Shown: positions 1 through 16,754 of the stretch, in pieces
How positions within the stretch are numbered: position 1 is the first letter of the stretch
How the letters are laid out: every line of letters begins with the position of its first letter
Virus record (IMG/VR): IMGVR_UViG_3300045988_058210
Location: 1 to 17,570 of that record
From: a virus
Direction: 5' to 3' (one strand)
DNA length: 17,570 bases
Translations under genes and position numbers: made by a program
The notes under the pieces: model-generated
The model's database searches: none
Seen by the model: the letters and a program-made list of their open reading frames with translations, nothing else
Told to the model about the DNA's origin: nothing

Positions 1-9
1 ATATATATA
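1..9. repeat. Terminal dinucleotide reiteration ATATATATA, mirrored at 17562-17570
   Basis: The sequence begins atatatatag and ends ctatatatat, so both 3' template ends read 3'-TATATATA. This is a short terminal reiteration of the kind protein-primed replicons use for sliding-back or jumping-back. Confidence 0.8.
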
Positions 10-57
10 GTCCGTCCCACGCGGACATTTTCCCAATTTTGTCCGCGTACGGCGGAC
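10..57. promoter_or_regulatory. Two origin-proximal palindromes: GTCCGT-N5-GCGGAC (10-26) and GTCCGC-N5-GCGGAC (41-57); mirrored at 17514-17561
   Basis: Read directly: gtccgtcccacgcggac and gtccgcgtacggcggac, immediately inside the AT terminal reiteration. Calling them a protein-binding or origin element is inference. Confidence 0.5.
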
Positions 58-74
58 AGCACATTGCACAAAAG

Positions 75-107
75 AAACGGTGTCCGCGTGAGAAAGACAC
101 CGTTTTT
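75..107. terminator. Hairpin with flanking A and T tracts (bidirectional terminator-like) inside the ITR; mirrored at 17464-17496
   Basis: The stem is aacggtgtc (76-84) pairing with gacaccgtt (96-104), 9 bp, with an 11-nt loop. It is preceded by aaaagaaa and followed by ttttt. Confidence 0.45.
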
Positions 108-188
108 GCAAACTATTTCATTGCATTTGTTTACTTTTAATACTTATTACAACACATATGCCCGAAAATTTTTATGCATTTTTCCAAC

Positions 189-217
189 TTGACAAAAACG
201 CTTCACCCGACTAAAGT
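189..217 (+). promoter_or_regulatory. Candidate inward-facing sigma-A-type promoter in the ITR (TTGACA-17-TAAAGT); mirror copy at 17354-17382 on the minus strand
   Basis: TTGACA lies at 189-194, then a 17-nt spacer, then TAAAGT at 212-217. The -35 box is perfect but the -10 matches only the TAnnnT positions. Confidence 0.3.
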
Positions 218-337
218 GTTAGTCCAGCCTAATTGTCTATACAATTTCACAAATATTCACGTTTTCCACCCGAATCTCGCACAATTCTTCCGAAATACTT
301 ACTCATTTTGCCCGAAAAGTGGACAAAACCGACCGTT

Positions 338-356
338 TGTCCGCGGGTCGCGGACA
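338..356. promoter_or_regulatory. Perfect palindrome TGTCCGCG-ggt-CGCGGACA
   Basis: Read directly: tgtccgcgggtcgcggaca, with 8-bp arms and a 3-nt centre. It belongs to the GTCCGCG palindrome family in the ITR. Confidence 0.5.
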
Positions 357-373
357 CAACCGAAACGGAAACT

Positions 374-393
374 CACTTTAGTCTGCTAAAGTG
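374..393. other. Hairpin cactttag-tctg-ctaaagtg (8-bp stem); a related copy sits at 830-845, just outside the ITR
   Basis: Read directly. The motif aactcactttagtNNgctaaag occurs at 370-391 and again at 824-845 (ctttag-ttcg-ctaaag). Confidence 0.5.
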
Positions 394-410
394 TCCGCGG
401 GTGACGGACA

Positions 411-622
411 CGGCGCGGACTGCCGTCGGTTATCTATGTGTAACTTTAGTAATCGTGCAGTAACGCTCGGATGTCTGCCAGTGACCGCCGGAGGCGGAAG
501 TGCCGCGCCTGCCCATTCGGGGTCGTCCGCGGCGCGGACTGCCGTCGGTTATCTATGTGTAACTTTAGTAATCGTGCAGTAACGCTCGGATGTCTGGCAG
601 TGACCGCCGGAGGCGGAAGTGC
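411..622. repeat. 93-bp direct repeat pair (411-503 and 530-622, offset 119 bp)
   Basis: I aligned the two copies by hand. They are identical except ctgccag versus ctggcag (2 nt, itself a reverse-complement flip). Each copy contains the small hairpin CCGCC-gga-GGCGG. Confidence 0.9.
525..539. promoter_or_regulatory. 15-bp palindrome GTCCGCG-g-CGCGGAC
   Basis: Read directly: gtccgcggcgcggac. Confidence 0.5.
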
Positions 623-687
623 TTCGCGCGCCCTCCGGGTGACGGACACGGCGCGTCCTTTCCGTCCGCGCCTGCCCGTTCGGGGTC

Positions 688-702
688 GTCCGCTGCGCGG
701 AC
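688..702. promoter_or_regulatory. Palindrome GTCCGC-tgc-GCGGAC
   Basis: Read directly: gtccgctgcgcggac. Confidence 0.5.
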
Positions 703-925
703 TGCCAGTCATATCCTATGAGTCATGTTAGTTATCGCTTGTGATCGTGCGGTTGTCCGCCGATGACCGCCGGAGGCTGTAGCGCTTCGCGCGCCCTCCG
801 GGTGACGGACACTTCGGAAAGGCAACTCACTTTAGTTCGCTAAAGACGCACCTTTTACACATATATTACTTTGATAAACAAACTTTAACATATTAAATTG
901 CAGATGTGTTGTCGGTTACAAAATT

Positions 926-964
926 GCAGACATTCAGACCATGATAAAAGTGTTGAATGTCTGC
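926..964. terminator. Bidirectional terminator-like hairpin downstream of the last late gene
   Basis: The stem is gcagacattca (926-936) pairing with tgaatgtctgc (954-964), 11 bp, with a 17-nt loop. It is followed by atttatttt on the plus strand and by aattttgt on the minus strand, and lies 9 nt past the stop of the 973..2976 gene. Confidence 0.55.
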
Positions 965-972
965 ATTTATTT

Positions 973-2976
973 TCACTCTAAAAGAGTTTTGTTAAAGAAT
1001 TCTACATTGTTACCGTGGGAAGATGAGTTTATATATTGTGTATCAAAAGTGAATGTTAGTATATCATCAACACTATTTTTATGGTTATTAGCAAAAGTAT
1101 TGTTAATAAAAATGATGTTGGCATTAGGTGCATTGTCAGATTTATACATATTTAAGCATTTTGAATTTATGCCAGAAATTCTGCAATCTTTAACTACTAA
1201 AGATTGATTTGGATTAGCTACTGGTGATGTAGGGTAATTGCCATGGCATAAAAGGGTGCCCTGTGAATTTAATTTTTTAGCATTATAAATATCTTCGTCA
1301 ATAGACGTTAATAAGTCGCAGTTTAACAAGTAAATTGTATTATTTAATTGCATACCAGCCCCAAACGCAGGAAAAGTTTCGCTGTACATATAGCAATTTT
1401 CAAATAGAGAAGTTGTAATTTCGCCGTTAGTTACATCATCACAGAGAACAGCGTATGAACCGAGTGTATTTAGCCAGGTAGGGTTACTAACGCCAGCTAG
1501 CACATCTTTTTTCCATGCTGCATATCCTTTTCCGGTATCAGAAGAATATTTGTCAGCGGTTGCAATAAAAGTTAAATTTGCTACATAGCAAGCACCTTGT
1601 ATTCTTAACGGCGCATTGTTAAAGTGTGCAGTAGCGTCTTTAATAACGCAAGTTTCTCTGTTAATTCCAATTAAAGAGACATAATGTTTACCTTTAATAA
1701 AAAGCACTTCTTCGTAAACGCCAGGAAAAACAATAATTGTAATTGGATTTTCTTTACTTTCAATCGCATAAGCGAAATTCAAGGCAGCATTTATGGAAGT
1801 AAACATTTTAGAATTGTCTTTTGATACTGTTAATGTAGTAGAGTTGCTAATAATTTTAACATCGTACTTCTTATCAATACGTTTTGAAAAGCAGAAATAA
1901 TAAGCGTTTTTTGGTATTGGTACAATAGTTTTATTATAAACAGAACTAAGCGTATTAAAGTTACTATCATAAAATGAAACTGTGAACACATTATCATTTG
2001 AAGTAGTAGTGTCGCAAATAATTGTGCCAGTTAAAGCACGTAAGTAAGGTGAGCAGAAATAGTCTTTATTAGAACTCAATTTGCCAGTGTTCCAATTTGC
2101 GTAATATCCAGTAACACCTATCGTTTGCGGAAGAATAATTGTGTTACTAAATGCACCATGATAAAAATTAGTTAATAATTCACTTTGTAAAGTATACATA
2201 GGATTTATGATAGCTTTCATGTATTTTTTAGATGTAACAATAGAATATCTAATAAAATGGGCATCGTCACGTAGACTAAATGCTTTATTAGCGTTAGTAT
2301 AAAAACCATAAATAAATTCTTTGTTTTCATTGTAAGCACATATAAATGTATCAATGCCGCTTTTAACTTGAAGTGATGTTCTAGGCAGAACGGCAATATA
2401 GTCGGAATAACTATAGTCTTTATTTATATGAACTTTACCATCAGCGTCTATATAGTGTTCATCGGTAAAAGTAGTGCCCTCACCTAAGTTTTCTCGAAAG
2501 TAATTATCGTTTGGTGAGAACAAAGAAGAAAGTAATGAGCCGGTCATAAAGGCATCTGCCGCCGCCCCCTGTACCGTCAACGATTTATCAACTGCCGGAC
2601 TAGTCGGATTTGTAATATTAGCAGCAAGCCATTTCGTAGTTTCGTTCGAAATAGTAGGTTTAATAATAGTTAGTAACGTGCCCTCACGCACCATGTTATC
2701 CAGTTTATTGTTAATTTCTTTCTGCACATCTAAGTTGTCAAAGTAAGTATTGACAAATTCATACAATTCTTTGTAGCTTTTTACAAGCGCGTCCTGTGCG
2801 TCAAACATTTCTTTCACAGTCTTAAACAGCACAACAAATTTATTTTCAAGACTCAACGTCCCGTTGAAATCATATGGAATCCCCCGCACACTTTCTACAA
2901 CTTCACAAGCTTGCGTAATCATCTTACCGAAATCTGGCAACGTAGGAAAATCTGGAATCGTTGGTTTCTCTGCCAT
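973..2976 (-). CDS. Tail appendage / receptor-binding protein with a predicted right-handed beta-helix (pectin-lyase-fold) domain; positional analogue of phi29 gp12
   Basis: This 667-aa ORF has the SD AAGGAGGG 6 nt upstream of its ATG. It is the last gene of the morphogenesis block, after the collar genes. The C-terminal half has a pectin-lyase-like signature (ITIIVFPGVYEEVLFIKGKHYVSLIGINRETCVIKD ... LRIQGACYVANLTFIA). The N-terminus carries LTVQGAAADAFMTG, a motif common in Firmicute phage fibre proteins. Confidence 0.6.
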   Translation of the reverse strand: MAEKPTIPDFPTLPDFGKMITQACEVVESVRGIPYDFNGTLSLENKFVVLFKTVKEMFDAQDALVKSYKELYEFVNTYFDNLDVQKEINNKLDNMVREGTLLTIIKPTISNETTKWLAANITNPTSPAVDKSLTVQGAAADAFMTGSLLSSLFSPNDNYFRENLGEGTTFTDEHYIDADGKVHINKDYSYSDYIAVLPRTSLQVKSGIDTFICAYNENKEFIYGFYTNANKAFSLRDDAHFIRYSIVTSKKYMKAIINPMYTLQSELLTNFYHGAFSNTIILPQTIGVTGYYANWNTGKLSSNKDYFCSPYLRALTGTIICDTTTSNDNVFTVSFYDSNFNTLSSVYNKTIVPIPKNAYYFCFSKRIDKKYDVKIISNSTTLTVSKDNSKMFTSINAALNFAYAIESKENPITIIVFPGVYEEVLFIKGKHYVSLIGINRETCVIKDATAHFNNAPLRIQGACYVANLTFIATADKYSSDTGKGYAAWKKDVLAGVSNPTWLNTLGSYAVLCDDVTNGEITTSLFENCYMYSETFPAFGAGMQLNNTIYLLNCDLLTSIDEDIYNAKKLNSQGTLLCHGNYPTSPVANPNQSLVVKDCRISGINSKCLNMYKSDNAPNANIIFINNTFANNHKNSVDDILTFTFDTQYINSSSHGNNVEFFNKTLLE

Positions 2977-2988
2977 TATTATCCCTCC

Positions 2989-3747
2989 TTAATAAAATTG
3001 ATAGAATAACTCTCTGCAATCATCGCAAATACGCTTGTTAAGATTAAGTATGGTATCTCGGAATCTCTGAATTTCTATAGAGTAACTACCGTCGAATCCC
3101 TCATCTTCAATTGTATCATTATTATCTGCATGATACGTGTCATTACTGTTGGTTTTTGTGGTATTCTCTCCATTGCTGACCGCACTGTTATGGATGGTAT
3201 TCTGTCCCCGATCCATCGTAGACGCATAATTCGTTCCGGCAAAATTAATCTGCGGGTTGTCTGAATGAATGTTCTGTGTGTCGTTATTTGTATCAGTTGA
3301 CGTTGTGTTTTTTGCCGTGCTGTCACCGGAGATCACACCTGTTCGTGTATCGTCTTTTGTACTCGTTACTTTTCGTGTACTCTTATGAGTAATCAGCGGG
3401 TTGTATTCAAAAGTAATACTCCGGTACAACTGCTCATAGTATGGCATATTGAGTGTGAGAATCTTTTTTAGATGATATTGAAATTCTCCGACAGTTTCCA
3501 ACCCGATCTGTTCTCGAAAATACTGTAAACAGAACGATTTTTCGAACGCAAGTTTTGCGGTTTCATATTCGGGAGCGGAAGCATCGACATAAAACGGAAA
3601 GTCAAAATTGAAGATGAAAGGAACGGCGGCTTCGATCATCTGATCAATGGTCTGATTTTCAAGTGGTGAAAGTACATGATCGGAAATGACCAACTGCTCA
3701 ATGGTATTCGTCAATGTTTTCGTTTCGTAGTTATAACTAAGAAACAT
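2989..3747 (-). CDS. Lower collar protein (phi29 gp11-like)
   Basis: This 252-aa ORF lies immediately downstream of the portal gene with a TAATG stop/start overlap at 3745-3749. It has the segment YFREQIGLETVGEF typical of lower-collar proteins as I recall them, and an Asn/Thr/Ser-rich central region. Confidence 0.6.
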   Translation of the reverse strand: MFLSYNYETKTLTNTIEQLVISDHVLSPLENQTIDQMIEAAVPFIFNFDFPFYVDASAPEYETAKLAFEKSFCLQYFREQIGLETVGEFQYHLKKILTLNMPYYEQLYRSITFEYNPLITHKSTRKVTSTKDDTRTGVISGDSTAKNTTSTDTNNDTQNIHSDNPQINFAGTNYASTMDRGQNTIHNSAVSNGENTTKTNSNDTYHADNNDTIEDEGFDGSYSIEIQRFRDTILNLNKRICDDCRELFYQFY

Positions 3748-4706
3748 TATTCCACCTCGCTTTCCGGCGTGTTGTTTCCGTTGTTTTCCGGTGTGTCGTT
3801 TTCGTCATTTGTTGTGTTGAAAACATCCGGTCGGTTAATCGGTGTTACCATCTTAGAATTAAAACGTACATGGATATTCAATCCATATCGTTCATTGATA
3901 GCGTCCAATCCTCTTTGAATGGTAGCCAGATTTCCGTTTCTTGTCAACTCGATCTCTCCATCGTTGTAACTCGTTTCCGCGGAAACCAGCCGTTCCGGTT
4001 TTTCTACGCCGCTTGCTTCGATACCGAGATCAGCTAGACATTCTGCTACTTCTCTCTGTGCGGCGGTGTCAAGTTCGTTAAAAATTGGCTGTATTTTCAA
4101 ATCAATGGTATCAATTTGAATCTGTTTTCGCAGATCGTTTTTTGCTTTGATAAACGGAATATTTTTTACCCACTTCTGAATAAAGTTGTCAATGGATAAC
4201 TTCTGCGTAGAATCCCCGCTGATAACAACTGGCGTTCTCTGCTGAATGACGTTTACCCTTGTGGACGCTTTTTTCTCCGCTAGACTCTGCGAATGCAGAA
4301 TAATACTGAGAATTTCCGGTACGGCAAAAGGTCTGGCAAAAATCAACGAACTTTCGTTTTTGTCCGTCTGCTCATAATACTGACCATTCATAGCGTAGGC
4401 AATCCAATCGGTAGGAATTCCGTAAATATCGGGTTCGCCAACCAGATTAACACCGAAAACGCCGAATAGTCCGGTGATTGGTTCTTTTTTGAACAGGCAC
4501 ATTCCCTGCCATAATAGATAGGAGTTGAGCATCCGCGGCGGAATCTCATCCGGTAAACCGTCATACTCATACCGCGATAATGCCAGATTGACAAACTTGT
4601 CAAAAAAGTGCCGGAAATACATTTTTTCTTCCGGTGACGTATTCGGCTTGCTTTCCCAGTGTCCCCACACTTCCTTGTTACTCACCCGATACGGGTTATC
4701 ATACAT
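3747..4706 (-). CDS. Portal / upper collar connector protein (phi29 gp10-like)
   Basis: This 319-aa ORF has the SD AAGGAGGTG. Several segments align with phi29 gp10 as remembered: KPERLVSAETSYNDGEIELT versus [20 protein letters not shown], and INERYGLNIHVRFN versus INELYGLNVKVKFR. Its size is similar to gp10 (309 aa). Confidence 0.9.
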   Translation of the reverse strand: MYDNPYRVSNKEVWGHWESKPNTSPEEKMYFRHFFDKFVNLALSRYEYDGLPDEIPPRMLNSYLLWQGMCLFKKEPITGLFGVFGVNLVGEPDIYGIPTDWIAYAMNGQYYEQTDKNESSLIFARPFAVPEILSIILHSQSLAEKKASTRVNVIQQRTPVVISGDSTQKLSIDNFIQKWVKNIPFIKAKNDLRKQIQIDTIDLKIQPIFNELDTAAQREVAECLADLGIEASGVEKPERLVSAETSYNDGEIELTRNGNLATIQRGLDAINERYGLNIHVRFNSKMVTPINRPDVFNTTNDENDTPENNGNNTPESEVE

Positions 4707-4718
4707 GACATCACCTCC

Positions 4719-6296
4719 TTAATTATTGGAAAGACCATAGTTTCCAACGTCATCCGTGTGCCAGAACGTAACGCCTCGGTTAAACATTGCCTGCAAAAAA
4801 TTGATATCATCGGTAACACACGACCCATGCAGGCTGCAATTAACCGTTTTGACAAAATTCCAGTTTGACCGCCCGGTAATATTAGGTACTTTAATTTTGT
4901 GCGTTGCATATCCGTACATGGTAAAAAAATCGTCGATCGTTTTCGCCATCTGAGCGGTTACACTCATCACATGACAGTAAACTTGACTGCCGAACAATGC
5001 GGTGGCAACATAACTTCCAGATGAATTACCTTTTGCTGTCGGTGGAATCAAATCATGACTTTCTTTTTGTGCGTTAATGTTTTCGTTCAGTAGATATGTT
5101 CCTGTTGCCGCGGTATAAATGCTTTCAACGCCAGCAGCTAAATTTCCGCTTAATGCTCCTACTAATCCTCCGGCTAAATTTCCAATCTGCGATATTGCAT
5201 TCTGCTTTTTGGAGTAGTCCCATAACGGACTAGACTGCGCTAGAAAAGCCTGATAGCCGTCATTTGTCCAGGCACACTGTGGGAAATTATTGATGATAAA
5301 ACCGTATGGGGATTTTGACCCACCATTACGTTTATATTCACGCGGAGCCACAAAGATTGCAGGAATATTAAACATAACGCCATACACCTGCATGGTTAAT
5401 GCTCCATTTTTACCGTATTCGAAATTAAAAGTATGCTGTATTCCCGAACCATCGTTGACCAGACAATAACAATAGGGATACTGATATAGTTTATTATTTT
5501 TCGGGAGATAGCCGTCAAGTGCATCTGGTTTAACGGTTACTTGTGTATAAGCAGATGTATCTGTCTGGAAACAAGCTTCTGGTGCTTGATATACATTAAC
5601 AATCGCATCTCCGTTTCCGCTTTTGACGTACTTCTGGATAACTGTGATTAAGTCCGTATATTTTGTTTTCCGAGTAAATGTCAACCCCGATAAAATTCCC
5701 TGATTGACAATGGGTATAATATTTGTTCCGTTTTCGTCTGCACTTGCACTCAAACAATACTGCATCGGACCGAGATTCAAAAGTCTCTGTTCGCTCGGAT
5801 TGTCCACGTATTCCCCCGTTTCCAGATTTTCTGGCACTAAATTAATTCCGGCATAATCAGCTTTTTTGTCAATATGTTCCCTTTCCACATAGCACGGTTG
5901 AAGTACCACATCGTAAAAACTGTTCTGAAAACGATCGGGTTCGAAATAAATCTTGAAACTTCCGTCACTCAACCATTCTACGCGCGTCACAAAACCGAAA
6001 TACCATTCTTCCGTATAGGGGTTGTTCTGAAAAGCAAGATAATTGCATTTCAGAAATTCACTCTCATTCCCTTTTCCTTTATAAGTCAGTTCTCCCCATC
6101 TCACGGGCGCGGATTGCTTAAAAATATGGATTGCTTTTTCTCTTACGTGCGCCAGACAGCCAGCTTTTCCGTCGTTATAATATCTTACGTGTTCGTAATC
6201 ATTTCCCCATTCGATACCACTAGCCAAAATAACCGTGGTCTGCGGGGAAACCGCCGCCACATCTTCCTGTGGCGGCATCGGAATGAAATTATCCAT
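4719..6296 (-). CDS. Tail knob / distal tube protein (phi29 gp9-like)
   Basis: This 525-aa ORF has the SD GAGGGTGG. ILASGIEWGNDYEHVRYY and NYLAFQNNPYTEEWYFGFVTRVEW...IYFEPDRFQN parallel phi29 gp9 ILADVPFSNDYKNTRWF and SYIMFQNADYGNKWFYAFVTELEF...VHFEIDVLQT. It sits between the capsid and portal genes. Confidence 0.88.
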   Translation of the reverse strand: MDNFIPMPPQEDVAAVSPQTTVILASGIEWGNDYEHVRYYNDGKAGCLAHVREKAIHIFKQSAPVRWGELTYKGKGNESEFLKCNYLAFQNNPYTEEWYFGFVTRVEWLSDGSFKIYFEPDRFQNSFYDVVLQPCYVEREHIDKKADYAGINLVPENLETGEYVDNPSEQRLLNLGPMQYCLSASADENGTNIIPIVNQGILSGLTFTRKTKYTDLITVIQKYVKSGNGDAIVNVYQAPEACFQTDTSAYTQVTVKPDALDGYLPKNNKLYQYPYCYCLVNDGSGIQHTFNFEYGKNGALTMQVYGVMFNIPAIFVAPREYKRNGGSKSPYGFIINNFPQCAWTNDGYQAFLAQSSPLWDYSKKQNAISQIGNLAGGLVGALSGNLAAGVESIYTAATGTYLLNENINAQKESHDLIPPTAKGNSSGSYVATALFGSQVYCHVMSVTAQMAKTIDDFFTMYGYATHKIKVPNITGRSNWNFVKTVNCSLHGSCVTDDINFLQAMFNRGVTFWHTDDVGNYGLSNN

Positions 6297-6312
6297 GTTT
6301 CCACCCTCTTAC

Positions 6313-7623
6313 TTAATCGGTCGTAAAGTGAATGTTTGCCGTTATGGAAGATTTGTACCGACTGGTAATCACAACTTTCACGCTTGTTTCTGCGTTTGCT
6401 TTCTGTTTAAGATTCTTCTCATCTTTTGCGATTCGAAGAATGGTTGTTCCCGGGATGACAAACGTATCAGCGGAAGAGTTACCCACTACTTTTACATCGA
6501 CTGCTTTATCGGCTACTCCACTTGACTCAACAGAAAAATTTCCGCCAAAGTCAACATCTGTTCCGGCTTTCACCAGTCCCACGTTATGTGCGGTAATGGA
6601 AGAAACAAGAACCGGCTCGGTCGTAAACACGATGATCGGATAAAACAGGGAATAAGAGAACATCTCTTTTACTGTATACGTACTGTTCCAACGCAGTCCG
6701 CGATTAACGTTATCCTGTACCATCATGCGATACTGTTCGCGGATTTTGAAGAACCGCTTGTCAACCAATACTGCTACAATACTCTCAGCATCGTTAAAGT
6801 TATCAATTAACACCTGCTGTGCTTTCGGAATCATCCGATCTAAATTGTAAGCACTTGCGTAGCTGTCAACATTCATAGCCGCTTTGGTGTCAGGGTCGAC
6901 AAACAAAAGAATGGTATCTTCTTTTGCCGCCGATGTCGCGCCAGCGAAATTATACAGCGGGTTCGGGAACTGAATCTTGTCGATGTAACTCTGAATCTGT
7001 TTTGCAAGTGCGTTCGCGGATGCCTGATTCGTAACCGCCTCCACATGAACCGGGTAAATCTGACCAGCGCGCTTTGCGGATGCGATCAACTCTTTCGCTG
7101 TCGTAAATTCATCCCAATTGCAAGCGGAAACGACACTTTCCACTTTTGCCTGCACGAGACTGCGCAAACCGTAATCATCGAGAAACGCGCCGCGCATATC
7201 CTCAAACCAGATCGTCACCGGATAATCGTTATTAAAATTGATTACATGATACAGCGCCATAATGTAGCTGTCATAAATGGCGGTCGCATCTTCGATGCTG
7301 ATATTGGCATCGTGCGCGTAACCCTGTGCAAAATTTACGTAGACTTCCTGTTCTCCGTTTCCATACGGCATGGCGTTACTGTTCAGTACACGCAGAGGAT
7401 TTCGGAACGCTTCGGTACTGATGGATTGACTGGCAATCAGATTTACCAGCGCAGGAACCAGTTCGTTCCGCGCCATCGGATTGTAAGGGTCGGTTAATGT
7501 TTTTGCAATATCGGCAATATTTTCACGAGTTGCTACCGGAACTCTGTCACGGTAGTCAACACTCATCGTCTGCCGAACGGCGTTCAGCATATTAATATTT
7601 GTCATATCTAATTTTTCTGCCAT
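6313..7623 (-). CDS. Major capsid protein (phi29 gp8-like) with a C-terminal Ig-like domain
   Basis: This 436-aa ORF has the SD AAGGAGAG. NMLNAVRQTMSVDYRDRVPVATRENIADI parallels gp8 [29 protein letters not shown], and AVLVDKRFFKI...RGLRWN parallels AVLVDKDWFMV...RGLYWN. The C-terminal roughly 90 aa is beta-rich (VDVKVVGNSSADTFVIPG..), like the BIG2 domain of gp8. Confidence 0.9.
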   Translation of the reverse strand: MAEKLDMTNINMLNAVRQTMSVDYRDRVPVATRENIADIAKTLTDPYNPMARNELVPALVNLIASQSISTEAFRNPLRVLNSNAMPYGNGEQEVYVNFAQGYAHDANISIEDATAIYDSYIMALYHVINFNNDYPVTIWFEDMRGAFLDDYGLRSLVQAKVESVVSACNWDEFTTAKELIASAKRAGQIYPVHVEAVTNQASANALAKQIQSYIDKIQFPNPLYNFAGATSAAKEDTILLFVDPDTKAAMNVDSYASAYNLDRMIPKAQQVLIDNFNDAESIVAVLVDKRFFKIREQYRMMVQDNVNRGLRWNSTYTVKEMFSYSLFYPIIVFTTEPVLVSSITAHNVGLVKAGTDVDFGGNFSVESSGVADKAVDVKVVGNSSADTFVIPGTTILRIAKDEKNLKQKANAETSVKVVITSRYKSSITANIHFTTD

Positions 7624-7627
7624 TGTT

Positions 7628-7972
7628 TCACTCTCCTTTTCCGCTCAGAATGAGCTGAGACATATCAAGATCGTTGATACTTGTTGCGGTTTCTTCCGAT
7701 TCCGGCGCGTTTCCGCCAAACTCGGTTACTTTTGTGATACTTCCGCCGTGGGTAAGATCAGACCAGCGGCTTTTGATTTCTGCCACCGCGGAATCATACT
7801 TTCCTTTCAGTTCGTCCCGTTCTGCGACCAGCGCGTCACGTTCGGACATCAGTGCGCCGATGTCGGTATCTTCTGTTTTGATTTTTTCGCTGATGGCGGC
7901 GATTGCGTCACCGTGCGTTTCGATGTTTCCAATGTCGGCTACGATTTCCGACCAATACTCTTCAAGTGTCAT
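7628..7972 (-). CDS. Scaffolding protein (phi29 gp7-like by position and composition)
   Basis: This 114-aa ORF is acidic and has heptad-like coiled-coil text (ALMSERDALVAERDELKGKYDSAVAEIKSRW). It lies directly upstream of the capsid gene, with the SD AGGAGG 6 nt from its ATG. Confidence 0.55.
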   Translation of the reverse strand: MTLEEYWSEIVADIGNIETHGDAIAAISEKIKTEDTDIGALMSERDALVAERDELKGKYDSAVAEIKSRWSDLTHGGSITKVTEFGGNAPESEETATSINDLDMSQLILSGKGE

Positions 7973-7973
7973 G

Positions 7974-9026
7974 TTAAAACCTCCTTTTTAAATTGGGATA
8001 TAACCAGATTGGCATTTTATGCCGTTTTGGTTTCGTTGGGTGAGGCGGCTCGGGGGGTTCGGGTTGTCCAGGTGACAAATACCGAAATACCATGACCGCG
8101 TTATTCAAACGTTCGGAATCAGATAAATACCGATTCCCAACAAGCCATCCGGTAATTGCAGAATCTTTTGCGTGTTCGGAAATAAAATTGAAACATTCAT
8201 GTGATTTTTCCTGCCGGAACGCAAGTGTTCCATCGTCACTGATTCCCTCCCACCCTTTCATGTAAGCGGCAGTCAGTGCGTTAAGATCGGTACTGTCACT
8301 ATGTAAAAACGCTTGCAGATTTTCGTAAGCACTTGCCGCGCCTACAGAATACCATACATTCTCGTAGATCAAATACTCTAACTGTGCGTTTCCATCGTCC
8401 CGGCTGTACCCGTTCGCGTCCAGCCAATGAAATAACTGTGTGCGGCGGTTGGTGTCGGCGTTATCTGTCCATTGACCCAATCCATAGCCGGGCGCTCCTA
8501 CAATCGTACCTTGCCACAACCCAGGGTTTACGGTTGACTCCTGCCAGAAATTGCCACAGATGGAGGCAATCACATACTGGCTGATATCGCTTTCTACCGC
8601 AACCGGATACCGATAAAGATACGTCCAGGAGCTATAGGGAGACACAAACGTATTGATGGATACCTGTCTGTCCAGCGGGTAACTATCGGTATGCGCTCCC
8701 ATCGTATACCCTCCGCCGTCTGCCTGATCATACACCATTTCGGTATGACCGGAACGCCATAAGATATCACCTTTCTTCCATGGCTGATTGGCTGTACCTT
8801 TTTGAAATCCTGCACCGATCAGATACCCATCCATGCTCCGAGTGGTAAACCATGGGTTAGATGCTAAAAACCCGCCGACCGTACAACAATAACTCATGAG
8901 GGACGAACAATCATAGTACGTAATACCTCCTACGGTCTGACCCTCACGATACGTTTGGGAATATCCAACGTTTGGATTGTTACAAATCTCGATACAGGTA
9001 TTGTACGCAAGTGTCAGATCAGCCAC
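7974..9026 (-). CDS. Tail-associated peptidoglycan hydrolase: N-terminal NlpC/P60-CHAP-like cysteine peptidase plus C-terminal phage tail lysozyme domain (functional analogue of phi29 gp13)
   Basis: This 350-aa ORF starts at GTG (9024-9026), preceded by GAGGGG. Cys and His motifs are YYDCSSLM and SGHTEMVY. The C-terminal half has the GNFWQESTVNP ... GYGLGQWT pattern I associate with the phage tail lysozyme family. Its start overlaps the endolysin stop (GTGGCTGA). Confidence 0.72.
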   Translation of the reverse strand: MADLTLAYNTCIEICNNPNVGYSQTYREGQTVGGITYYDCSSLMSYCCTVGGFLASNPWFTTRSMDGYLIGAGFQKGTANQPWKKGDILWRSGHTEMVYDQADGGGYTMGAHTDSYPLDRQVSINTFVSPYSSWTYLYRYPVAVESDISQYVIASICGNFWQESTVNPGLWQGTIVGAPGYGLGQWTDNADTNRRTQLFHWLDANGYSRDDGNAQLEYLIYENVWYSVGAASAYENLQAFLHSDSTDLNALTAAYMKGWEGISDDGTLAFRQEKSHECFNFISEHAKDSAITGWLVGNRYLSDSERLNNAVMVFRYLSPGQPEPPEPPHPTKPKRHKMPIWLYPNLKRRF

Positions 9027-9723
9027 GGGTCAACCCCTCTTTTGCGACGTAACCAGTATAGACGATTCTATTGACAACCGCTTTTACAAGATACCACTCA
9101 TTTGTATAATACCCGTAGTTTCTAACACTGGTTCCGGTTGGCAACGTCAAGATGACAGTTTTATTCATTCCCGCGCCAACACGCAGATGATAGCGATCAT
9201 TGGTATGATACGCTCCTGCAATTTTCCGGTCAAAACTACGCGCGGATTCTGTTTTGATTGAACTTTCCATGACGTTATTCGGCTTTTCGTCGACGGCTCC
9301 TGCATACCGATAGTGAACGGTATTTTCATACGGAAGATCGTAATAAGACCGTACACAGATTTCTTTTCCGGTCTGATCTCCCGTCTGACCATCAATCCCG
9401 CCGTTTTCCGACTGGCTGGCGTGGACGATGCGGTTCGCGTCAACCGACATCGTTACATGATGACCAGCCGCAAGGTGGATATCCCCGCGTCTCCACGGTT
9501 TACCGCATTTCACAAAACCAGCGTTTTCCAACTGTTCACCTAGATTTCTAGTTGTGCTGTAAATGCTGACCGGAAAACCAGCATTTGCAAGTGCAGTCCC
9601 GACAAAAGAGGAGCAGTCATAATCGGGACTGTTCCGGTGTACCTGTGAGTACCCGTGCCGATCATCGGCGGCGATTTGTTCCGCCCATGCAACTGCTTTT
9701 TCGATTTTATTCATTCTTTCCAC
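9019..9723 (-). CDS. Endolysin: NlpC/P60-CHAP-like cysteine peptidase plus C-terminal SH3b-like cell-wall-binding domain
   Basis: This 234-aa ORF has the SD AGGAGGTGG. Catalytic-type motifs are DYDCSSFVG and AAGHHVTM. The C-terminus (YHLRVGAGMNKTVILTLPTGTSVRNYGYYTNEWYLVK) looks like a bacterial SH3 domain. It lies immediately after a holin-like gene. Confidence 0.78.
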   Translation of the reverse strand: MERMNKIEKAVAWAEQIAADDRHGYSQVHRNSPDYDCSSFVGTALANAGFPVSIYSTTRNLGEQLENAGFVKCGKPWRRGDIHLAAGHHVTMSVDANRIVHASQSENGGIDGQTGDQTGKEICVRSYYDLPYENTVHYRYAGAVDEKPNNVMESSIKTESARSFDRKIAGAYHTNDRYHLRVGAGMNKTVILTLPTGTSVRNYGYYTNEWYLVKAVVNRIVYTGYVAKEGLTRG

Positions 9724-9904
9724 CTCCTAAGTGCTGGCAAAGTGAATTAATTGCAGTCGTGTTCGCTTCTACGCTTTTCCGCAGTTCTTCCATTTCTGCC
9801 TTGTGTGCGTCTTTTTCTTTCACCAGATACCAGAAAAGTGCGCCGCAACAAACAATTGGAAAACCGAGACTTCCAACTAACTGCGTTACCATAGTTACAT
9901 CCAT
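9707..9904 (-). CDS. Holin-like membrane protein (BhlA/UviB-like architecture)
   Basis: This 65-aa ORF has the SD GGAGGT 6 nt upstream. It has a single N-terminal hydrophobic helix (LVGSLGFPIVCCGALFWYLV) followed by a charged coiled segment. It overlaps the endolysin start by 17 nt. Confidence 0.62.
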   Translation of the reverse strand: MDVTMVTQLVGSLGFPIVCCGALFWYLVKEKDAHKAEMEELRKSVEANTTAINSLCQHLGGGKNE

Positions 9905-10185
9905 GTTTCTACCTCCTTATCCTGCCATTTTAACCAGTCCTCAATTTCACTTAATTTATCACACATAATAAAATTATGAATGAAGCGGACAGGCGATTTA
10001 CTGTTATACGCGTTGCCATCCATAAAAAAGAAATCCCACAAATACCGAATGTGAGTCTCATAATTTTCATGTGGGACAATGATTAACGTGTCTTTTTCGT
10101 CCCCTTTATAGCGTACCGTATAAGCAAGATAAGCATTTTCTTTTTTCATCATGCTGACAATCATATTAAAAACGATATTTGCCAT
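9895..10185 (-). CDS. Hypothetical protein (96 aa), first gene after the internal promoter and structured leader
   Basis: The ORF has the SD AGGAG 5 nt upstream of its ATG and overlaps the holin start by 10 nt. I recognise no motifs. Confidence 0.6.
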   Translation of the reverse strand: MANIVFNMIVSMMKKENAYLAYTVRYKGDEKDTLIIVPHENYETHIRYLWDFFFMDGNAYNSKSPVRFIHNFIMCDKLSEIEDWLKWQDKEVETWM

Positions 10186-10200
10186 CTTTGCTCCTTTCTT

Positions 10201-10291
10201 CCCGTCCTTTGAAAAACAAGGAAACCTTTTGACCTGCCAGGACGGGGCGGTTTACTCAACCGTGGCAACCCCTCTAAAAAGGTTTCCCTAT
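10201..10291 (-). ncRNA. Structured RNA element (pseudoknot-capable, terminator-like closing stem); candidate small ncRNA (pRNA-like) or transcription attenuator
   Basis: Minus-strand RNA features, given in plus-strand coordinates. P1 is an 11-bp stem, GGAAACCUUUU (10287-10277) pairing with AAAAGGUUUCC (10230-10220), followed by UUGUUUUU (10219-10212). P2a is GGGG (10272-10269) with CCCC (10247-10244). P2b is CGGUU (10262-10258) with AACCG (10252-10248), loop GAGUA. The 6-nt bulge UUGCCA (10268-10263) is complementary to UGGCAG (10239-10234). An alternative helix pairs CCCGUCC (10246-10240) with GGACGGG (10207-10201), just upstream of the SD. Confidence 0.45.
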
Positions 10292-10297
10292 ATTTTC

Positions 10298-10326
10298 ATA
10301 ATACAGCTTTTCTGTCCGTTTGTCAA
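10298..10326 (-). promoter_or_regulatory. Near-consensus sigma-A/sigma-70 promoter (TTGACA-17-TATTAT)
   Basis: On the minus strand, TTGACA (10326-10321) is followed by the 17-nt spacer aacggacagaaaagctg and then TATTAT (10303-10298). It lies in the 165-bp gap between the ATPase gene and the 96-aa gene. Confidence 0.7.
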
Positions 10327-10334
10327 GTACAGTT

Positions 10335-10351
10335 GTCCGTCTCTTACGGAC
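10335..10351. promoter_or_regulatory. Palindrome GTCCGT-N5-ACGGAC, 8 bp upstream of the -35 box; an extra GTCCGT half-site lies in the spacer (10314-10319)
   Basis: Read directly: gtccgtctcttacggac. It has the same arm sequence and spacing as the ITR terminal palindromes at 10-26 and 41-57, and it overlaps the ATPase stop codon. Confidence 0.5.
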
Positions 10352-11490
10352 TATTTATAAAGATCAATCCCCAGCAACTCAACCGCCATATTTTTACTGT
10401 CAAGATCATCAAAACGCAAGTATGCTTTTTGGTACGCTTCAACTAACCTTACAAACAAGTAATCATAATGATCGAGCATAACCGTGTTTTGTGTGTGATC
10501 ACCGTCACGGAAAACAGCAACATAAGTGCAAGACGGGTTACACTTATGCGTGATATAAATATACCCATCTTCATAATAATCATATACCCCATACCTTTTC
10601 CCACTATGCTGAATCGTGAACAGATACCGCGACCGTCCGGTCGGCTTCTGCACAAACACGGCATCATCAATCAACATCTGATCTCCCACGCTCATGCTCT
10701 GCATGTAGTGACCGCCGCGGAACGCTTTCAAAGCGGTGTTCTCCCACATGGCTTTACTTGCACTATCGTTGTGCGTAAACTCACACACAAAACCAGTTCC
10801 ATGCAGCATTTTGGTTTCTTTCTGATACCGCTTGTGGATGCCGAAAAAAACAAAATGGGGATTGAGCAACGAAATATTATTGGATGCCATCACCAGTTTA
10901 AACCATCGGGACTGGCTTCCATTTCCACGACTGATCGTCAATAACAACGATTGCAGTTTTTCGGGTTCCCCTTTTACGTATTGCCCGCTTTCCATGCTAA
11001 ACTCATCAAAAAACAAAAAGTAGATATCCCGAAAATACGGTGACAGCTTTTTTACACTGTCCATCTTACTTCCAAAACTAAACGCGCATCCGAACGGCTC
11101 ACCATCCAAAAAGTACCGGACGACATTTCCGTTTTTGTCAAGATTTTTATAAGTAATCACACTTCCTAATTTTGGATACATTCTTAGCATATCTTCATAC
11201 ATTGCCGCCGCTCCCGTCATCTCCCCTTTTGTCCGAAAAATCCATCCCGTCTGCAATCCGTACTCTTTACACAAGATACAGCTTGCCGCGGCAAACGCAC
11301 TTGTCTTTCCAGCACTACGGTTGGAACACGTAATTGCTACGCCAGCGAAATCACCGTCTACGTCCGGCTCGGTAAATAACCGAATCGGATTGTAGTACTG
11401 AATCGTATTGCCTTTATCGTCTGCCGATTCAAATTTCACATCATAATCAGCGAAAAGTTTTTCCCAATTGATATCATTCCAAAAAATCAT
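10351..11490 (-). CDS. DNA packaging (encapsidation) ATPase, phi29 gp16-like
   Basis: This 379-aa ORF has Walker A CSNRSAGKTS (compare gp16 GARGIGKS) and Walker B IYFLFFDEFS (compare gp16 TIVFDEFI). The ATG has no adjacent SD; see the finding on the palindrome and mini-ORF at 11491-11530. Confidence 0.85.
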   Translation of the reverse strand: MIFWNDINWEKLFADYDVKFESADDKGNTIQYYNPIRLFTEPDVDGDFAGVAITCSNRSAGKTSAFAAASCILCKEYGLQTGWIFRTKGEMTGAAAMYEDMLRMYPKLGSVITYKNLDKNGNVVRYFLDGEPFGCAFSFGSKMDSVKKLSPYFRDIYFLFFDEFSMESGQYVKGEPEKLQSLLLTISRGNGSQSRWFKLVMASNNISLLNPHFVFFGIHKRYQKETKMLHGTGFVCEFTHNDSASKAMWENTALKAFRGGHYMQSMSVGDQMLIDDAVFVQKPTGRSRYLFTIQHSGKRYGVYDYYEDGYIYITHKCNPSCTYVAVFRDGDHTQNTVMLDHYDYLFVRLVEAYQKAYLRFDDLDSKNMAVELLGIDLYK

Positions 11491-11518
11491 TGTTTCACGT
11501 GAAACATTTTTGTTTCAC
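11491..11518. promoter_or_regulatory. 16-bp perfect palindrome TGTTTCACGTGAAACA plus a third half-site (TGTTTCAC), abutting the ATPase start codon
   Basis: Read directly: tgtttcacgtgaaaca (11491-11506), tttt, tgtttcac (11511-11518). The SD-like AAAGGAGG lies at 11520-11527 (minus sense). The identical 16-mer recurs at 14873-14888. Confidence 0.55.
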
Positions 11519-11540
11519 GGCCTCCTTTCTATCATTTCCC

Positions 11541-11612
11541 GCTCCGCGTCACCGCCAGTTCCCCGCCAGTCGCTCCGCAGTCAATCTCACGTTAATCGCA
11601 CGATATCGCACG
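11541..11612. repeat. Cluster of short direct repeats in the early/late intergenic region
   Basis: GCTCCGC(G/A)GTC occurs at 11541-11550 and 11572-11582. CCGCCAGT occurs at 11552-11559 and 11563-11570. ATC(T/G)CACG occurs at 11584, 11595 and 11605, spaced 11 and 10 bp apart. Confidence 0.7.
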
Positions 11613-11656
11613 TTTTGCTGCAGATGGACGCAGAGGCGGCAGAGCTCGCTGGGTAT

Positions 11657-11690
11657 CAAAAAGAGCTACGCTGGAAAACGTAGCTCTCTC
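11657..11690 (-). terminator. Rho-independent terminator ending the early/replication transcription unit
   Basis: The minus-strand RNA reads AGAGCUACG-UUUUCCAG-CGUAGCUCU followed by UUUUUGAU. The stem pairs 11679-11687 with 11662-11670 (9 bp). It lies 110 nt downstream of the 11801..12220 gene. Confidence 0.85.
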
Positions 11691-11800
11691 ACACGTATGG
11701 AGTTTTTTCAAACACAAGATATCGTAACAATCAACTACAGGTAACTTATCATACTCTTTGGTACCGTCCACCAGTCGGCGCGCGTATTGCGTTCATGTAT

Positions 11801-12220
11801 TTAAGCGAACGGGTTGAATTTTGCCAGCTCGCCGAACTTATGGACGTTTACGGCGGAAAGGAAGGCCGTGAATCCCTTTTCGCGGCGGAACTTGCTTTCG
11901 CCGATCGAGAGGAAGAGGTCAACAACTGCGCCTTTGCCGAGTTCGGCAACACTAGAAACGGTGTCGCTCTCGAATCCGTCCTCATAAAAGGCAACGCGGT
12001 AATTTGTCTGCGCTTTTACGTAGATACCATATTCGTCACTTTCTTTCGCCGGAATCCACTTTGCTTCTGCGGCGGCATCCTCACCAAACTCTTCGATAAT
12101 TTTTTCGAAGATGGCTTTCTGCTGGTCTTCTGTGATCAAAGCAGAAATAACGCTTTTGCCGTCCTCTTCCTTTGCATATTTTACAGTTACGTTGTTCAGT
12201 TTCATTTTTGCTTTACTCAT
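11801..12220 (-). CDS. Putative ssDNA-binding protein (T7 gp2.5 / DUF2815-like architecture)
   Basis: This 139-aa ORF has the SD AAGGAGAG. The N-terminal KLNNVTVKYAKEE and the C-terminal GKGAVVDLFLSIGESKFRREKGFTAFLSAVNVHKFGE resemble the OB-fold pattern of DUF2815/gp2.5-like phage SSBs as I recall it. It sits in the replication module. Confidence 0.45.
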   Translation of the reverse strand: MSKAKMKLNNVTVKYAKEEDGKSVISALITEDQQKAIFEKIIEEFGEDAAAEAKWIPAKESDEYGIYVKAQTNYRVAFYEDGFESDTVSSVAELGKGAVVDLFLSIGESKFRREKGFTAFLSAVNVHKFGELAKFNPFA

Positions 12221-12326
12221 GATTTTCTCTCCTTTTGCTTAAGTTGTTTCCTATGCAGAACCGCGGCGATTTGCTTTGATCGTTTCCGTCTTATCTGGTC
12301 ACTTCCAGACCGCGGTTGTGCGCTGA

Positions 12327-12563
12327 TTAGTCGTCCAGTCTCTTTGCTTCTGCAAAGAACTGTTCGTCAGGCATCTCGTAGCGGGCGGATACGGTATCGG
12401 TTAATACACAGATGAAATCCTCCGGAAAACCAGCGGCGGCAACAGCGGCGGTTTTTGCTTTCTGCGATTTCAGTTCTTCTGTATTACTAAAAGCGCCGAC
12501 CACCTGTTTTGTGTTTCTGTCAATGACAGAGTAGATAAAATTTTCGATTTTTGTTCTAACCAT
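12327..12563 (-). CDS. Hypothetical protein (78 aa)
   Basis: I trimmed the ORF-track call 12327..12638 to the internal ATG at 12561-12563. That ATG is preceded by GGAGA with 7-nt spacing, and the longer version would begin inside the promoter. Confidence 0.6.
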   Translation of the reverse strand: MVRTKIENFIYSVIDRNTKQVVGAFSNTEELKSQKAKTAAVAAAGFPEDFICVLTDTVSARYEMPDEQFFAEAKRLDD

Positions 12564-12609
12564 ACTTTTTTCTCCTTTCGTTATATTGGTATTTGTTCTT
12601 ACAAGTATT

Positions 12610-12638
12610 ATAATAGCATGTCCGACCAAAAAAGTCAA
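12610..12638 (-). promoter_or_regulatory. Near-consensus sigma-A/sigma-70 promoter (TTGACT-17-TATTAT, with TG at the extended -10 position)
   Basis: On the minus strand, TTGACT (12638-12633) is followed by the 17-nt spacer tttttggtcggacatgc and then TATTAT (12615-12610). It lies in the AT-rich gap after the DNA polymerase gene. Confidence 0.65.
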
Positions 12639-12772
12639 TAGTTAAAATAAGAAAATAAAGAAAATATCCAAAAATAAAAGCAGGATGGAAAGGTCGAGTT
12701 CTTCCTCATGTAACGCCCAGATCGTTGATAATACCAAAAACATAAAAAACACAAAATATCCCATATCGTCTC

Positions 12773-14932: not shown

Positions 14933-14942
14933 GGTTATTACC

Positions 14943-15521
14943 TCACTTTAATTTAGTTCTATTCTTATTAAAAAGTTCTTCCTCCGTAATATATCCATCA
15001 AGAAAGTCCTCATACTCTTCCAGAATATCTTCGAATTCAATTCCGCTATCATTTAATTTCGAAATAAAATCGTCAATGATCTGATCGGATTCCACCTGCT
15101 TTCGCAAATCCTTTTTGTAGATATTGGATGTTAGAAAACGATACAAGTCTTTATAGTTATCTTCTGTTACTTCTCCATTAATTTTATTCTTAGACTTGTC
15201 AAAACGTCTCTGCATTTCTGCAATCCGGTATCCCTCCAGTGTGGTTTCTGGAGAAGTCAAAAACGCAATCATGGTATCCCATTCCTGCCGGATGGATGCA
15301 TCCGAACGTTTCGTACCTTTCAAGAAACGATTTTTTTCTCGTCCTTGTGACGCGAAAAACTCCTTTACACGTCCGTATTCCCATTGGTCGCGTGCGTGTA
15401 CTTTTTCCAGTTTGGCAAGGCGGCTATTCGCCGCCGCCGCAACTTTAGGTAATTCGCGTTTGATCTGGTCAATGGATAAGTCAAGGTCTTGATAGATGCT
15501 ATAGTCTTTTGAGTTCGGCAC
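14943..15521 (-). CDS. Putative terminal protein (priming protein), assigned by position and composition
   Basis: This 192-aa ORF starts at GTG, preceded by AAGGGGG. It lies immediately upstream of the polymerase gene, as gene 3 precedes gene 2 in phi29. It is highly charged, with a basic N-terminal half (KVAAAANSRLAKLEKVHAR) and an acidic C-terminus (IEFEDILEEYEDFLDGYITEEE) carrying Ser/Tyr/Thr candidates. I cannot verify any sequence homology. Confidence 0.4.
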   Translation of the reverse strand: MPNSKDYSIYQDLDLSIDQIKRELPKVAAAANSRLAKLEKVHARDQWEYGRVKEFFASQGREKNRFLKGTKRSDASIRQEWDTMIAFLTSPETTLEGYRIAEMQRRFDKSKNKINGEVTEDNYKDLYRFLTSNIYKKDLRKQVESDQIIDDFISKLNDSGIEFEDILEEYEDFLDGYITEEELFNKNRTKLK

Positions 15522-15631
15522 TATTCACACCCCCTTATAAAGATTCGCAATTTATCAGAAATAATCTCGAAACCTATTACTTCTATGCGAACATAGCCGC
15601 AATACAATTTTATAAAATCTACTACTCTCAC
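15521..15631 (-). CDS. Micro-ORF (36 aa, VRVVDFIKLYCGYVRIEVIGFEIISDKLRIFIRGCE), absent from the ORF track
   Basis: I translated this by hand. It starts at GTG (15629-15631), 7 nt after a strong SD, TAAGGAGGT, which overlaps the stop of the upstream gene. Its TAG stop (15521-15523) overlaps the GTG start of the next gene by 1 nt. It fills an otherwise unexplained 122-bp gap. Confidence 0.45.
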   Translation of the reverse strand: MRVVDFIKLYCGYVRIEVIGFEIISDKLRIFIRGCE

Positions 15632-15643
15632 TGTGATACCTCC

Positions 15644-15994
15644 TTAATACAAGCAATCTTCATTTGCTCCATCTGTAGAATACAGAGGGCACATAGTACA
15701 GTTGTCGTTTGCAGAACAAATAACACGGTGAGAAACTTCTACATAGTACGCTTTTAAAGCGTAACGTGTAGAAATTTTGTTATGCAAGTTTACGGTAAAA
15801 CCTACGCCAAAATTACCTTTGTAGGGCAACGGATTACATAACGCACTCACCTTTACGTAGCCATTCGTAAGAGACGCGTGATCATATGCGTAAATATGTA
15901 CTTCTCCATCAGTATCTTCTGATTTCACATATAACGGAATATCCTCCATTCTAGCCGGAATGCTAGACAATTTATCGATAGGTAATGCTTGCAT
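15644..15994 (-). CDS. Hypothetical early protein (116 aa), Cys-containing C-terminus
   Basis: The ORF has the SD AAGGAGA 6 nt upstream of its ATG. I recognise no motifs. The C-terminus reads CSANDNCTMCPLYSTDGANEDC. Confidence 0.6.
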   Translation of the reverse strand: MQALPIDKLSSIPARMEDIPLYVKSEDTDGEVHIYAYDHASLTNGYVKVSALCNPLPYKGNFGVGFTVNLHNKISTRYALKAYYVEVSHRVICSANDNCTMCPLYSTDGANEDCLY

Positions 15995-16005
15995 GTTTTT
16001 TCTCC

Positions 16006-16398: not shown

Positions 16399-16447
16399 GA
16401 ATGCTCCTTTCTCCCCGTCTTGCCGATAGGTCAACAGATGTTAAGTA

Positions 16448-16636
16448 TTAAATGGAACGGTACAGCGGCGATTCATGATATAACTCTCTAAAAAGATCGT
16501 CATATGTTACCCACTTAGTAAGTGCTTTTTCCGCTGGCATGCTCTTTTGTCCATATACATTTTCCATTATTTTGAGCATATCCCATGAATCATTGCATTT
16601 TTCATTTAATACGGTTTTAATTTCTTCTACTGTCAT
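16448..16636 (-). CDS. Hypothetical early protein (62 aa), first gene after the early promoter
   Basis: The ORF has the SD AGGAGG 8 nt upstream of its ATG. It is mildly acidic and I recognise no motifs. Confidence 0.6.
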   Translation of the reverse strand: MTVEEIKTVLNEKCNDSWDMLKIMENVYGQKSMPAEKALTKWVTYDDLFRELYHESPLYRSI

Positions 16637-16684
16637 TTAATTTTCCTCCTTTTTATATTATTGGTTTTCCTTGTTTCTGATATT

Positions 16685-16729: not shown

Positions 16730-16754
16730 TATCATTACACACATATTCACACCG

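Follow-up and report, generated by a model that had tools for sequence, protein, structure and literature searches.

Introduction

The inverted terminal repeats (ITRs) of poxviruses hold arrays of tandem repeats, such as the 70-, 125- and 54-bp sets of vaccinia virus. The function of these arrays is poorly defined, and they behave as near-neutral products of recombination. At protein-primed origins, accessory sites that recruit DNA-binding proteins are known from several systems: the NFI and Oct-1 sites of the adenovirus ITR, the p6 nucleation regions of phi29, and the TRF1 sites of pGKL. The ITR of phi29 itself is only 6 bp long (PMC11476376). A search of the literature on tandem repeats in the ITRs of protein-primed phages, and on phage HM2, found nothing relevant.

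Here we analyzed a stretch of 17,570 bp (the window), which is the complete linear genome of a phi29-like podovirus and is classed in IMG/VR as an ITR genome. The phage is small and gut-derived, and belongs to a clade abundant in the gut. Its ITRs contain a tandem array whose organization is of the poxvirus type, with head-to-tail repeats inside the ITR of a linear double-stranded DNA virus, copy-number polymorphism, and a movable boundary. As in the poxvirus arrays, which change by unequal crossover, copy number varies by strain and sometimes by end. Poxviruses differ, however, in having covalently closed hairpin ends that are not protein-primed, and their units are unrelated and lack the composite of palindrome and AT-box described below. 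Like the accessory sites of adenovirus, phi29 and pGKL, the array lies toward the end of a replicon primed by a terminal protein, and the GTCCG-N7-CGGAC half-site architecture found here resembles the adenovirus NFI site, TTGGC-N5-GCCAA. Those sites lie about 20-180 bp from the tip, whereas the array is located at 400-816 bp, is tandem, and varies in unit number. The iterons of plasmids and phages offer another likeness, that of directly repeated modules (of putative recognition function here) adjoining a replication origin. Iterons, in contrast, are 17-22 bp long and bound by a Rep initiator, whereas the array has a period of 119-163 bp, no Rep-like gene accompanies it, and initiation is at the terminal-protein-linked tip. 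Classification as an iteron array was rejected on the period, 119/163 bp instead of short regular direct repeats of about 17-22 bp.

Results

The genome and its terminal repeats

All large genes of the phage lie on the minus strand. They include those for a phi29-type connector (gp10-type), the lower collar, the tail knob gp9, the major capsid protein, a gp16 packaging ATPase, and a family-B DNA polymerase. The nearest cultured relative found was Clostridium phage HM2, with a polymerase identity of 44.6%; its ITR is 170 bp long and is devoid of a GC-rich block.

The left and right ITRs of the window (1-816 and 16755-17570) are 100% complementary, the right one being the exact reverse complement of the left. 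The outer part (1-397) is AT-rich. Overall G+C content is 63.5% in 390-816, compared with 41.6% in 1-389 and 41.8% in unique DNA, and the counts given in the initial annotation, 15/60 for 121-180 and 44/60 for 601-660, were exact on recount. The GC-rich block is mirrored at 16755-17181 in the right ITR. The outer ITR (about 1-397 to 1-410) is about 92% identical between the window and its relatives. Palindromes of one family are present at the ITR tips (10-26 and 41-57), and each ITR has four copies of the sequence GTCCG-N7-CGGAC, with a single internal one at 10335-10351.

Several other features of the genome were recorded. Two perfect copies of TGTTTCACGTGAAACA, which is the canonical ParB/Spo0J parS site, are located at 11491-11506 and 14873-14888, with a chance expectation of 0.07. 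Phage phi29 carries parS sites as well, for riding into spores, and the copies in the window hint at a spore-forming Firmicute host and at hijacking of host ParB. By analogy with phi29 ends, Spo0A boxes (TGNCGAA) were counted; the genome has 12 where 13.4 would be expected, and the ITR has none. The tetranucleotide GGCC is strongly avoided in the unique DNA 817-16754 (3 observed, 30 expected) and absent from the GC-rich block 390-816 (4.3 expected), while CCGG, GCGC and CGCG are over-represented. The avoidance points to a host restriction system of the HaeIII type; GGCC is present in the units of some relatives. In the early region, a gene for 142 amino acids (16006-16434, minus strand; phrog_3754, function not assigned) is missing from all 26 relatives compared, and the adjoining genes for 62 and 116 amino acids are alleles just 40-50% identical among relatives, so the early region is a mosaic.

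The inner ITR is a degenerate tandem array of composite units

Positions 398-816 form a degenerate tandem array, with a period of 119 and then of 163. Tandem Repeats Finder, which confirmed this architecture as first proposed, reported 398-655 (period 119, 2.2 copies, 87% matches, score 432) and 503-812 (period 163, 1.9 copies, 81% matches, score 416), with both periods mirrored at 16759-17068. A repeat search found three 119-nt copies starting at 400, 519 and 682. The 93-nt cores at 411-503 and 530-622 are a true repeat, and they differ at a single position (478, C/G) where two differences had been claimed. Comparison of 503-650 with 666-813 (148 nt) gave no indels and 33 mismatches, 29 of which fall at offsets 41-97; the description of a 163-bp unit with near-identical flanks and a diverged 57-nt core of equal length is thus borne out.

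The array is entered through P1, the palindrome GTCCGCGGGTGACGGAC (GTCCG-N7-CGGAC) at 393-409, which is also the innermost palindrome within the conserved outer ITR. There follow, on the plus strand, unit A (398-516; 119 nt, with a 'type 1' core and without the 3' arm of the GC hairpin), unit B (517-635; 119 nt, core 530-622), a linker (636-680), unit C (681-798), and a terminal P1 half-site, CGGGTGACGGACAC, at 799-812. The ITR ends 4 bp beyond this half-site, at 816. The linker is composed of a P1 half-site CGGGTGACGGACACGGCGCG, a GTCC-rich stretch and a small CCC-GTTC-GGG hairpin, and comes directly after P1 in single-unit relatives. Unit C is a canonical unit, 93% identical to the sole unit of three relatives (L004, L007 and L014).

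Each unit is a series of modules. The first is P2, a GTCCGC-N3-GCGGAC palindrome, present as GTCCGC-GGC-GCGGAC at 525-539 and as GTCCGC-TGC-GCGGAC at 688-702. The second, 13-15 nt later, is the AT-box, TATGTGTAA-NN-TTAGTWATCG, which is the most conserved stretch of the unit. It occurs on the plus strand at 435-455 (TATGTGTAA-CT-TTAGTAATCG), at 554-574, and in a degenerate form (TATGAGTCATGTTAGTTATCG) at 717-737. Motifs like GTNAYC recur weakly at 10-11-bp spacing inside the AT-box region. A segment CGGTTGTC..GACCGCCG separates the AT-box from H3, a hairpin with arms CCGGAGG and CCTCCGG, and the CGGGTGACGGACAC half-palindrome comes after H3. The H3 arms are present as originally noted, with coordinates shifted by one: CCGGAGG starts at 607 and 770, and also at 488, where it has no partner, and CCTCCGG starts at 632 and 795. 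The inner hairpin does tolerate the U/C change reported for it, since it reads GTGC-TTC-GCGC in the H3 copy at 607-638 and GCGC-TTC-GCGC in that at 770-801.

Modules also occur outside the ITR. Just beyond the left ITR, at 824-845, lies the hairpin AACTCACTTTAG-TTCG-CTAAAG, a paralogue of 370-391; the sequence AACTCACTTTAGTTCGCTAAAG at this place is 84% identical to 361-391, which agrees with the related motif described earlier. An inverted copy of the AT-box head, TATGTGTAA, is found in unique DNA at the late end (855-863, minus strand), and an AT-box' (ATATGTGTGTAAT; 16734-16746, minus strand) in unique DNA between the right ITR and the early promoter. The proposed build from shuffled modules stands, the modules being palindrome, AT-box, GC hairpin, half-palindrome, and the CACTTTAG..CTAAAGTG hairpin. 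Near these elements, the early promoter at 16685-16729 (TTGACA-17-TATTGT) is flanked by twin TTTTCTAGAAAA palindromes, of which relatives have two or three copies with small variations. At the other end, a hairpin at 922-968 (AATTGCAGACATTCA..TGAATGTCTGCATTT) has T-runs on both strands and is probably a bidirectional terminator that closes the late operon before the ITR.

Unit number and ITR boundary vary among relatives

A polymerase search of IMG/VR gave 157 relatives, of which 80 were kept, with amino-acid identities of 87-97%. The array unit recurs in about 50 related contigs, always near contig ends and in 0-4 copies per end, a count to be read with the caution that the relatives are all metagenome assemblies, where near-identical tandem units can be miscounted. 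Because these roughly 50 clade contigs are independent of one another, the array is not an accident of assembly. The AT-box pattern was found in 56 IMG/VR viral stretches, 55 of them 5-17-kb contigs of this clade and the other a chance match; the clade matches lie at most about 800 nt from an end of the fetched stretch. In bacterial genomes (596 Gb, 185,579 species genomes) there were just two matches, at chance level. Because the AT-box is restricted to clade contigs, the block is a clade-specific phage element and not host DNA. An origin from host or mobile DNA was rejected on the near absence of the AT-box from bacterial genomes and the lack of a DNA match in the phage database.

In ten genomes with both ends assembled, ITR length ranged from 407 to 816 bp. 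Seven of them have the boundary directly after the CGGGTGACGGACAC P1 half-site; in the other three it falls within P2, H3 or the CACTTTAG..CTAAAGTG hairpin. A boundary that moves in this way agrees with recombination, or with template switching, among the repeated modules, and supports the earlier suggestion that the boundary was set by recombination between repeat units. Unit type or number can be unequal at the two ends of a genome (contig 103274, G001 and G002), and G007 has no unit at its early end and one at its late end.

Examination of the ITR/unique junctions revealed a common composite. Every clade end has a GTCCG..CGGAC-type palindrome at the junction, with an AT-rich box (TATGTGTGTAA) 13-15 nt further on, the same palindrome-to-AT-box spacing as in the units. 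The early ends of L009 and L020 are without complete units and read P1 - GGCGYGGCGTG - TTATGTG(T/C)GTAATGAT - early promoter; in L013 and G010, partial units are joined to the promoter region via the AT-box. The 119-163-bp units look like reiterations of this junction composite of P1 and AT-box', extended by the GC hairpin and closed by the half-palindrome. Exchange between repeated copies of P1 or of the AT-box would explain unit gain, unit loss and boundary shifts alike.

Units A and B belong to one subtype and unit C to another, with their nearest units in different relatives, and unit divergence is only weakly correlated with polymerase divergence (r = 0.30). This pattern indicates module exchange between lineages. 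No link was found among the relatives between unit number and early-gene content.

Much of this variation would also be expected if the units were a near-neutral by-product, a residue of recombination or replication slippage between ITR palindromes that seems conserved only through gene conversion from end to end and through horizontal spread of ITR segments in co-circulating phages. Copy number reaches zero at some ends, ITR boundaries are located at repeats, units A and B are 99% identical and so recently duplicated, unit divergence is almost uncoupled from that of the polymerase, and the tandem repeats of poxvirus ITRs act in the same way. However, all 12 genomes with both ends assembled retain at least one unit, every junction retains the composite of palindrome and AT-box, and 63.5% G+C is kept up in a 42% genome. 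Together with the strong patchiness of unit diversity presented next, these observations make a near-neutral origin unlikely in our judgement.

Diversity within the units is patchy

Conservation was measured on the units of 27 genomes. Their mean pairwise difference was 0.166, less than half the neutral rate of 0.366 taken from 4-fold sites of the polymerase as reference, although horizontal spread of ITR modules could inflate this conservation. Of the unit columns, 36% are invariant and 18% hypervariable (diversity > 0.4). The invariant runs are TATATGTGTAA, TTAGT, ATCG, CGGTTG and GCCGGA, and hypervariable columns adjoin them. Such patchiness speaks for purifying selection acting on particular motifs; recent homogenization would yield uniform identity.

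The AT-box is a long, invariant and asymmetric motif at a fixed distance from the palindrome. The presence of such a long, invariant, non-palindromic sequence within GC-rich DNA points to sequence-specific recognition. We tentatively favor a reading in which the block repeats a composite cis element in variable copy number and works at the DNA level, as a putative reiterated protein-recognition module; we regard it as plausible while stopping short of calling it probable.

Tests for coding capacity and for a structured RNA

Open reading frames at 391-582, 471-731 and 446-712 cross unit joints that are missing in relatives, and a coding region was rejected. A conserved reading frame is ruled out because units differ by 1-nt and 11-nt indels.

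In phi29, a packaging RNA (pRNA) of 120 bases suffices for packaging (PMC11476376). The array unit is comparable in length (119 nt) and likewise lies near the genome end of a phi29-like phage with a gp16-type ATPase and a gp10-type connector. The block could accordingly be viewed as a structured RNA, transcribed inward from 189-217 to yield a non-coding RNA at the left end, an early-operon leader at the right end, or an analogue of the packaging RNA. A TTGACA-17-TAAAGT site pointing inward is indeed present at 189-217, its -10 region is 100% conserved, and the 922-968 hairpin with its T-run could stop an inward transcript. In addition, C-to-T changes in the 3' arm of H3 preserve G-U pairing only on the plus sense strand. 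However, some relatives have a 10-nt insert beside the TTGAC -35 box of this site, and copy number varies from 0 to 4 and is unequal between ends.

Covariance-model searches and folding did not bear this out. With Rfam cmscan on the whole window at E <= 10, only a spurious bxd_1 match at 9908-9991 was obtained, and the phi29 pRNA model (RF00044) had no match at that threshold; a tRNA search of the array was negative. Folding of the units on both strands gave z scores from +1.04 to -1.16, no better than shuffled sequence, and the centroids were mostly unstructured, without a consistent three-way junction. When both strands of 30 units and of the 222-412 leader were analyzed with RNAalifold, covariation terms were near zero or unfavorable, with -0.56 for the units and a positive, unfavorable value for the leader. 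The covariation by which the initial annotation had proposed to check its hairpins was close to nil: a single pair of 17 in a hand-drawn structure is compensatory, a C-G to A-U swap in one small hairpin.

Signals for a separate transcript were sought within the block. There were no promoter-like sites within 398-816 on either strand, and the only terminator-like matches in the block were weak 5-bp stems at 411 and 530. On the plus strand, H3 is followed by GTGACGG and P2 by TGCC; as no U-run follows either GC hairpin, both were rejected as intrinsic terminators. The units thus differ from phi29 pRNA in being tandem, variable in number, present at both ends, and without a promoter and terminator of their own. 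A single pRNA gene with its own promoter and terminator was rejected on the absence of an internal promoter and the 0-4 copies per end, and a phi29-type packaging RNA on the same copy range together with the lack of an Rfam match and of a stable fold.

A more pRNA-like candidate was found elsewhere in the genome. The sequence at 10201-10326, after the ATPase gene, has a closing helix and a terminator-like tail, and the pRNA reading of the ITR units is lowered further by this more convincing candidate. Taken together, the evidence leaves a structured RNA from the block a quite doubtful proposition.

Two further arrangements of promoter-like sites were observed. On the minus strand, at 10313-10351, the candidate is preceded by an ITR-type palindrome, GTCCGTAAGAGACGGAC, closely followed by a TTGACA -35 box; the spacer contains one more CGGACA half-site. 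The RNA predicted downstream of this promoter has the closing helix GGAAACCTTTT..AAAAGGTTTCC and a T-run, and is the pRNA-like candidate. In the outer ITR, back-to-back promoter-like sites within 65-217 share the TTGACA/TGTCAA box at 189-195, one directed inward (plus strand) and one outward (minus strand). The outward site would yield an RNA some 60-95 nt long with its end at a bidirectional hairpin at 75-105 (AAACGGTGTC..GACACCGTTT), which has T-runs on both strands.

Palindromes as possible single-strand DNA hairpins

The palindromes could act in single-stranded DNA. During strand-displacement replication, the GC palindromes would fold into hairpins, or the GC block would clamp a panhandle of the two ITRs. 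Several properties of the units agree with this. Across 46 sequence variants the H3 stem is retained while the apex changes; an 11-nt insert in the apex is itself a perfect mini-hairpin, and in the L027 variant a different 7-bp hairpin is rebuilt at the place of H3. P2 has arms that are the same in all relatives and a loop that varies freely, and there is the one compensatory C-G/A-U swap mentioned above. Pairing of tandem units out of register would account for changes in copy number and for shifts of the boundary, and the 100% identity of the two ITR copies fits frequent ITR-ITR pairing.

On the strand with its 3' end at the tip, the loops would be GGA or GCA in P2 and GAA in H3, giving GCGGAGC, GCGCAGC and GCGAAGC. 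We take these to be very stable GNA-triloop DNA mini-hairpins of the type also present in Streptomyces telomere palindromes. The likeness to Streptomyces telomeres extends to the GC-rich palindromes with 3-nt GNA-type loops (GCGCAGC) and to the terminal-protein-capped linear replicon. The Streptomyces palindromes, however, occupy the first 150-200 nt of a 3' overhang and serve end patching, whereas those of the phage lie at least 400 nt inside, in a genome replicating by strand displacement. The GNA-loop pattern was noticed post hoc and is speculative.

Other observations disagree with hairpin formation. Overall folding energy does not exceed that of shuffled sequence, covariation is minimal, and phi29-type polymerases have no need of such structures. 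Moreover, the best-conserved element of the unit, the non-palindromic AT-box, is left unexplained. We therefore consider it improbable that single-strand hairpins account for the array.

Discussion

Of the three functions first offered for the block, the protein-loading array appears to fit the sequence patterns best; a non-coding RNA fits weakly, and an inert spacer is disfavored because conservation is motif-wise. In the protein-recognition reading that we tentatively favor, the palindrome and AT-box composite found at each ITR/unique junction would be the source that was copied. The motifs of the units would be recognition sites for at least one sequence-specific DNA-binding protein, of phage or host, and each additional unit would offer more sites for a nucleoprotein complex assembled close to the protein-primed origin and early promoter. 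Such a complex may be analogous to those formed at the accessory sites of adenovirus ITRs or by p6 and p4 in phi29. Units may be gained and lost by unequal recombination, or by template switching of the polymerase, between repeated half-palindromes. The palindrome type of the array is shared with the ITR tips and with the operator-like site at 10335-10351, a similarity that would place them in one family of binding sites.

Some findings speak against this reading. The spacing of P2 is N3 or N5 in the units and N7 in the palindromes at the tips, and one dimeric protein is not expected to bind both. No recognizable DNA-binding domain was found in the small early proteins with Pfam and PHROGs, nor does unit number follow early-gene content. 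As the early ends of L009 and L020 show, a given end can do without extra units. The kept stem and varying apex of H3, with the C-G to A-U swap, are hints that selection acts on a folded single strand and not on the sequence of the duplex.

A bolder proposal is that the units are a new kind of terminal cis element of protein-primed phages. They would act either as a nucleoprotein scaffold 0.4-0.8 kb inside the ends or as GNA-loop hairpins in the displaced strand, and would couple origin use, homogenization of the ITRs through a panhandle, and control of the early promoter, with copy number as an evolvable dosage knob. We put this forward as a distinctly long shot.

The array has a practical consequence as well. 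Because of it, assembly of these phages usually breaks off within the ITR, and CheckV and IMG call many such contigs 'linear' fragments.

In this gut clade, then, the ITRs are 0.4-0.8 kb long, in contrast to 6 bp in phi29 and 170 bp in HM2, and their inner part is an array of conserved, expandable modules. Should these modules bind a protein, or form structures in the displaced strand, they would offer tractable accessory elements of origin function or ITR maintenance in protein-primed phages, and would also show how ITR length evolves.
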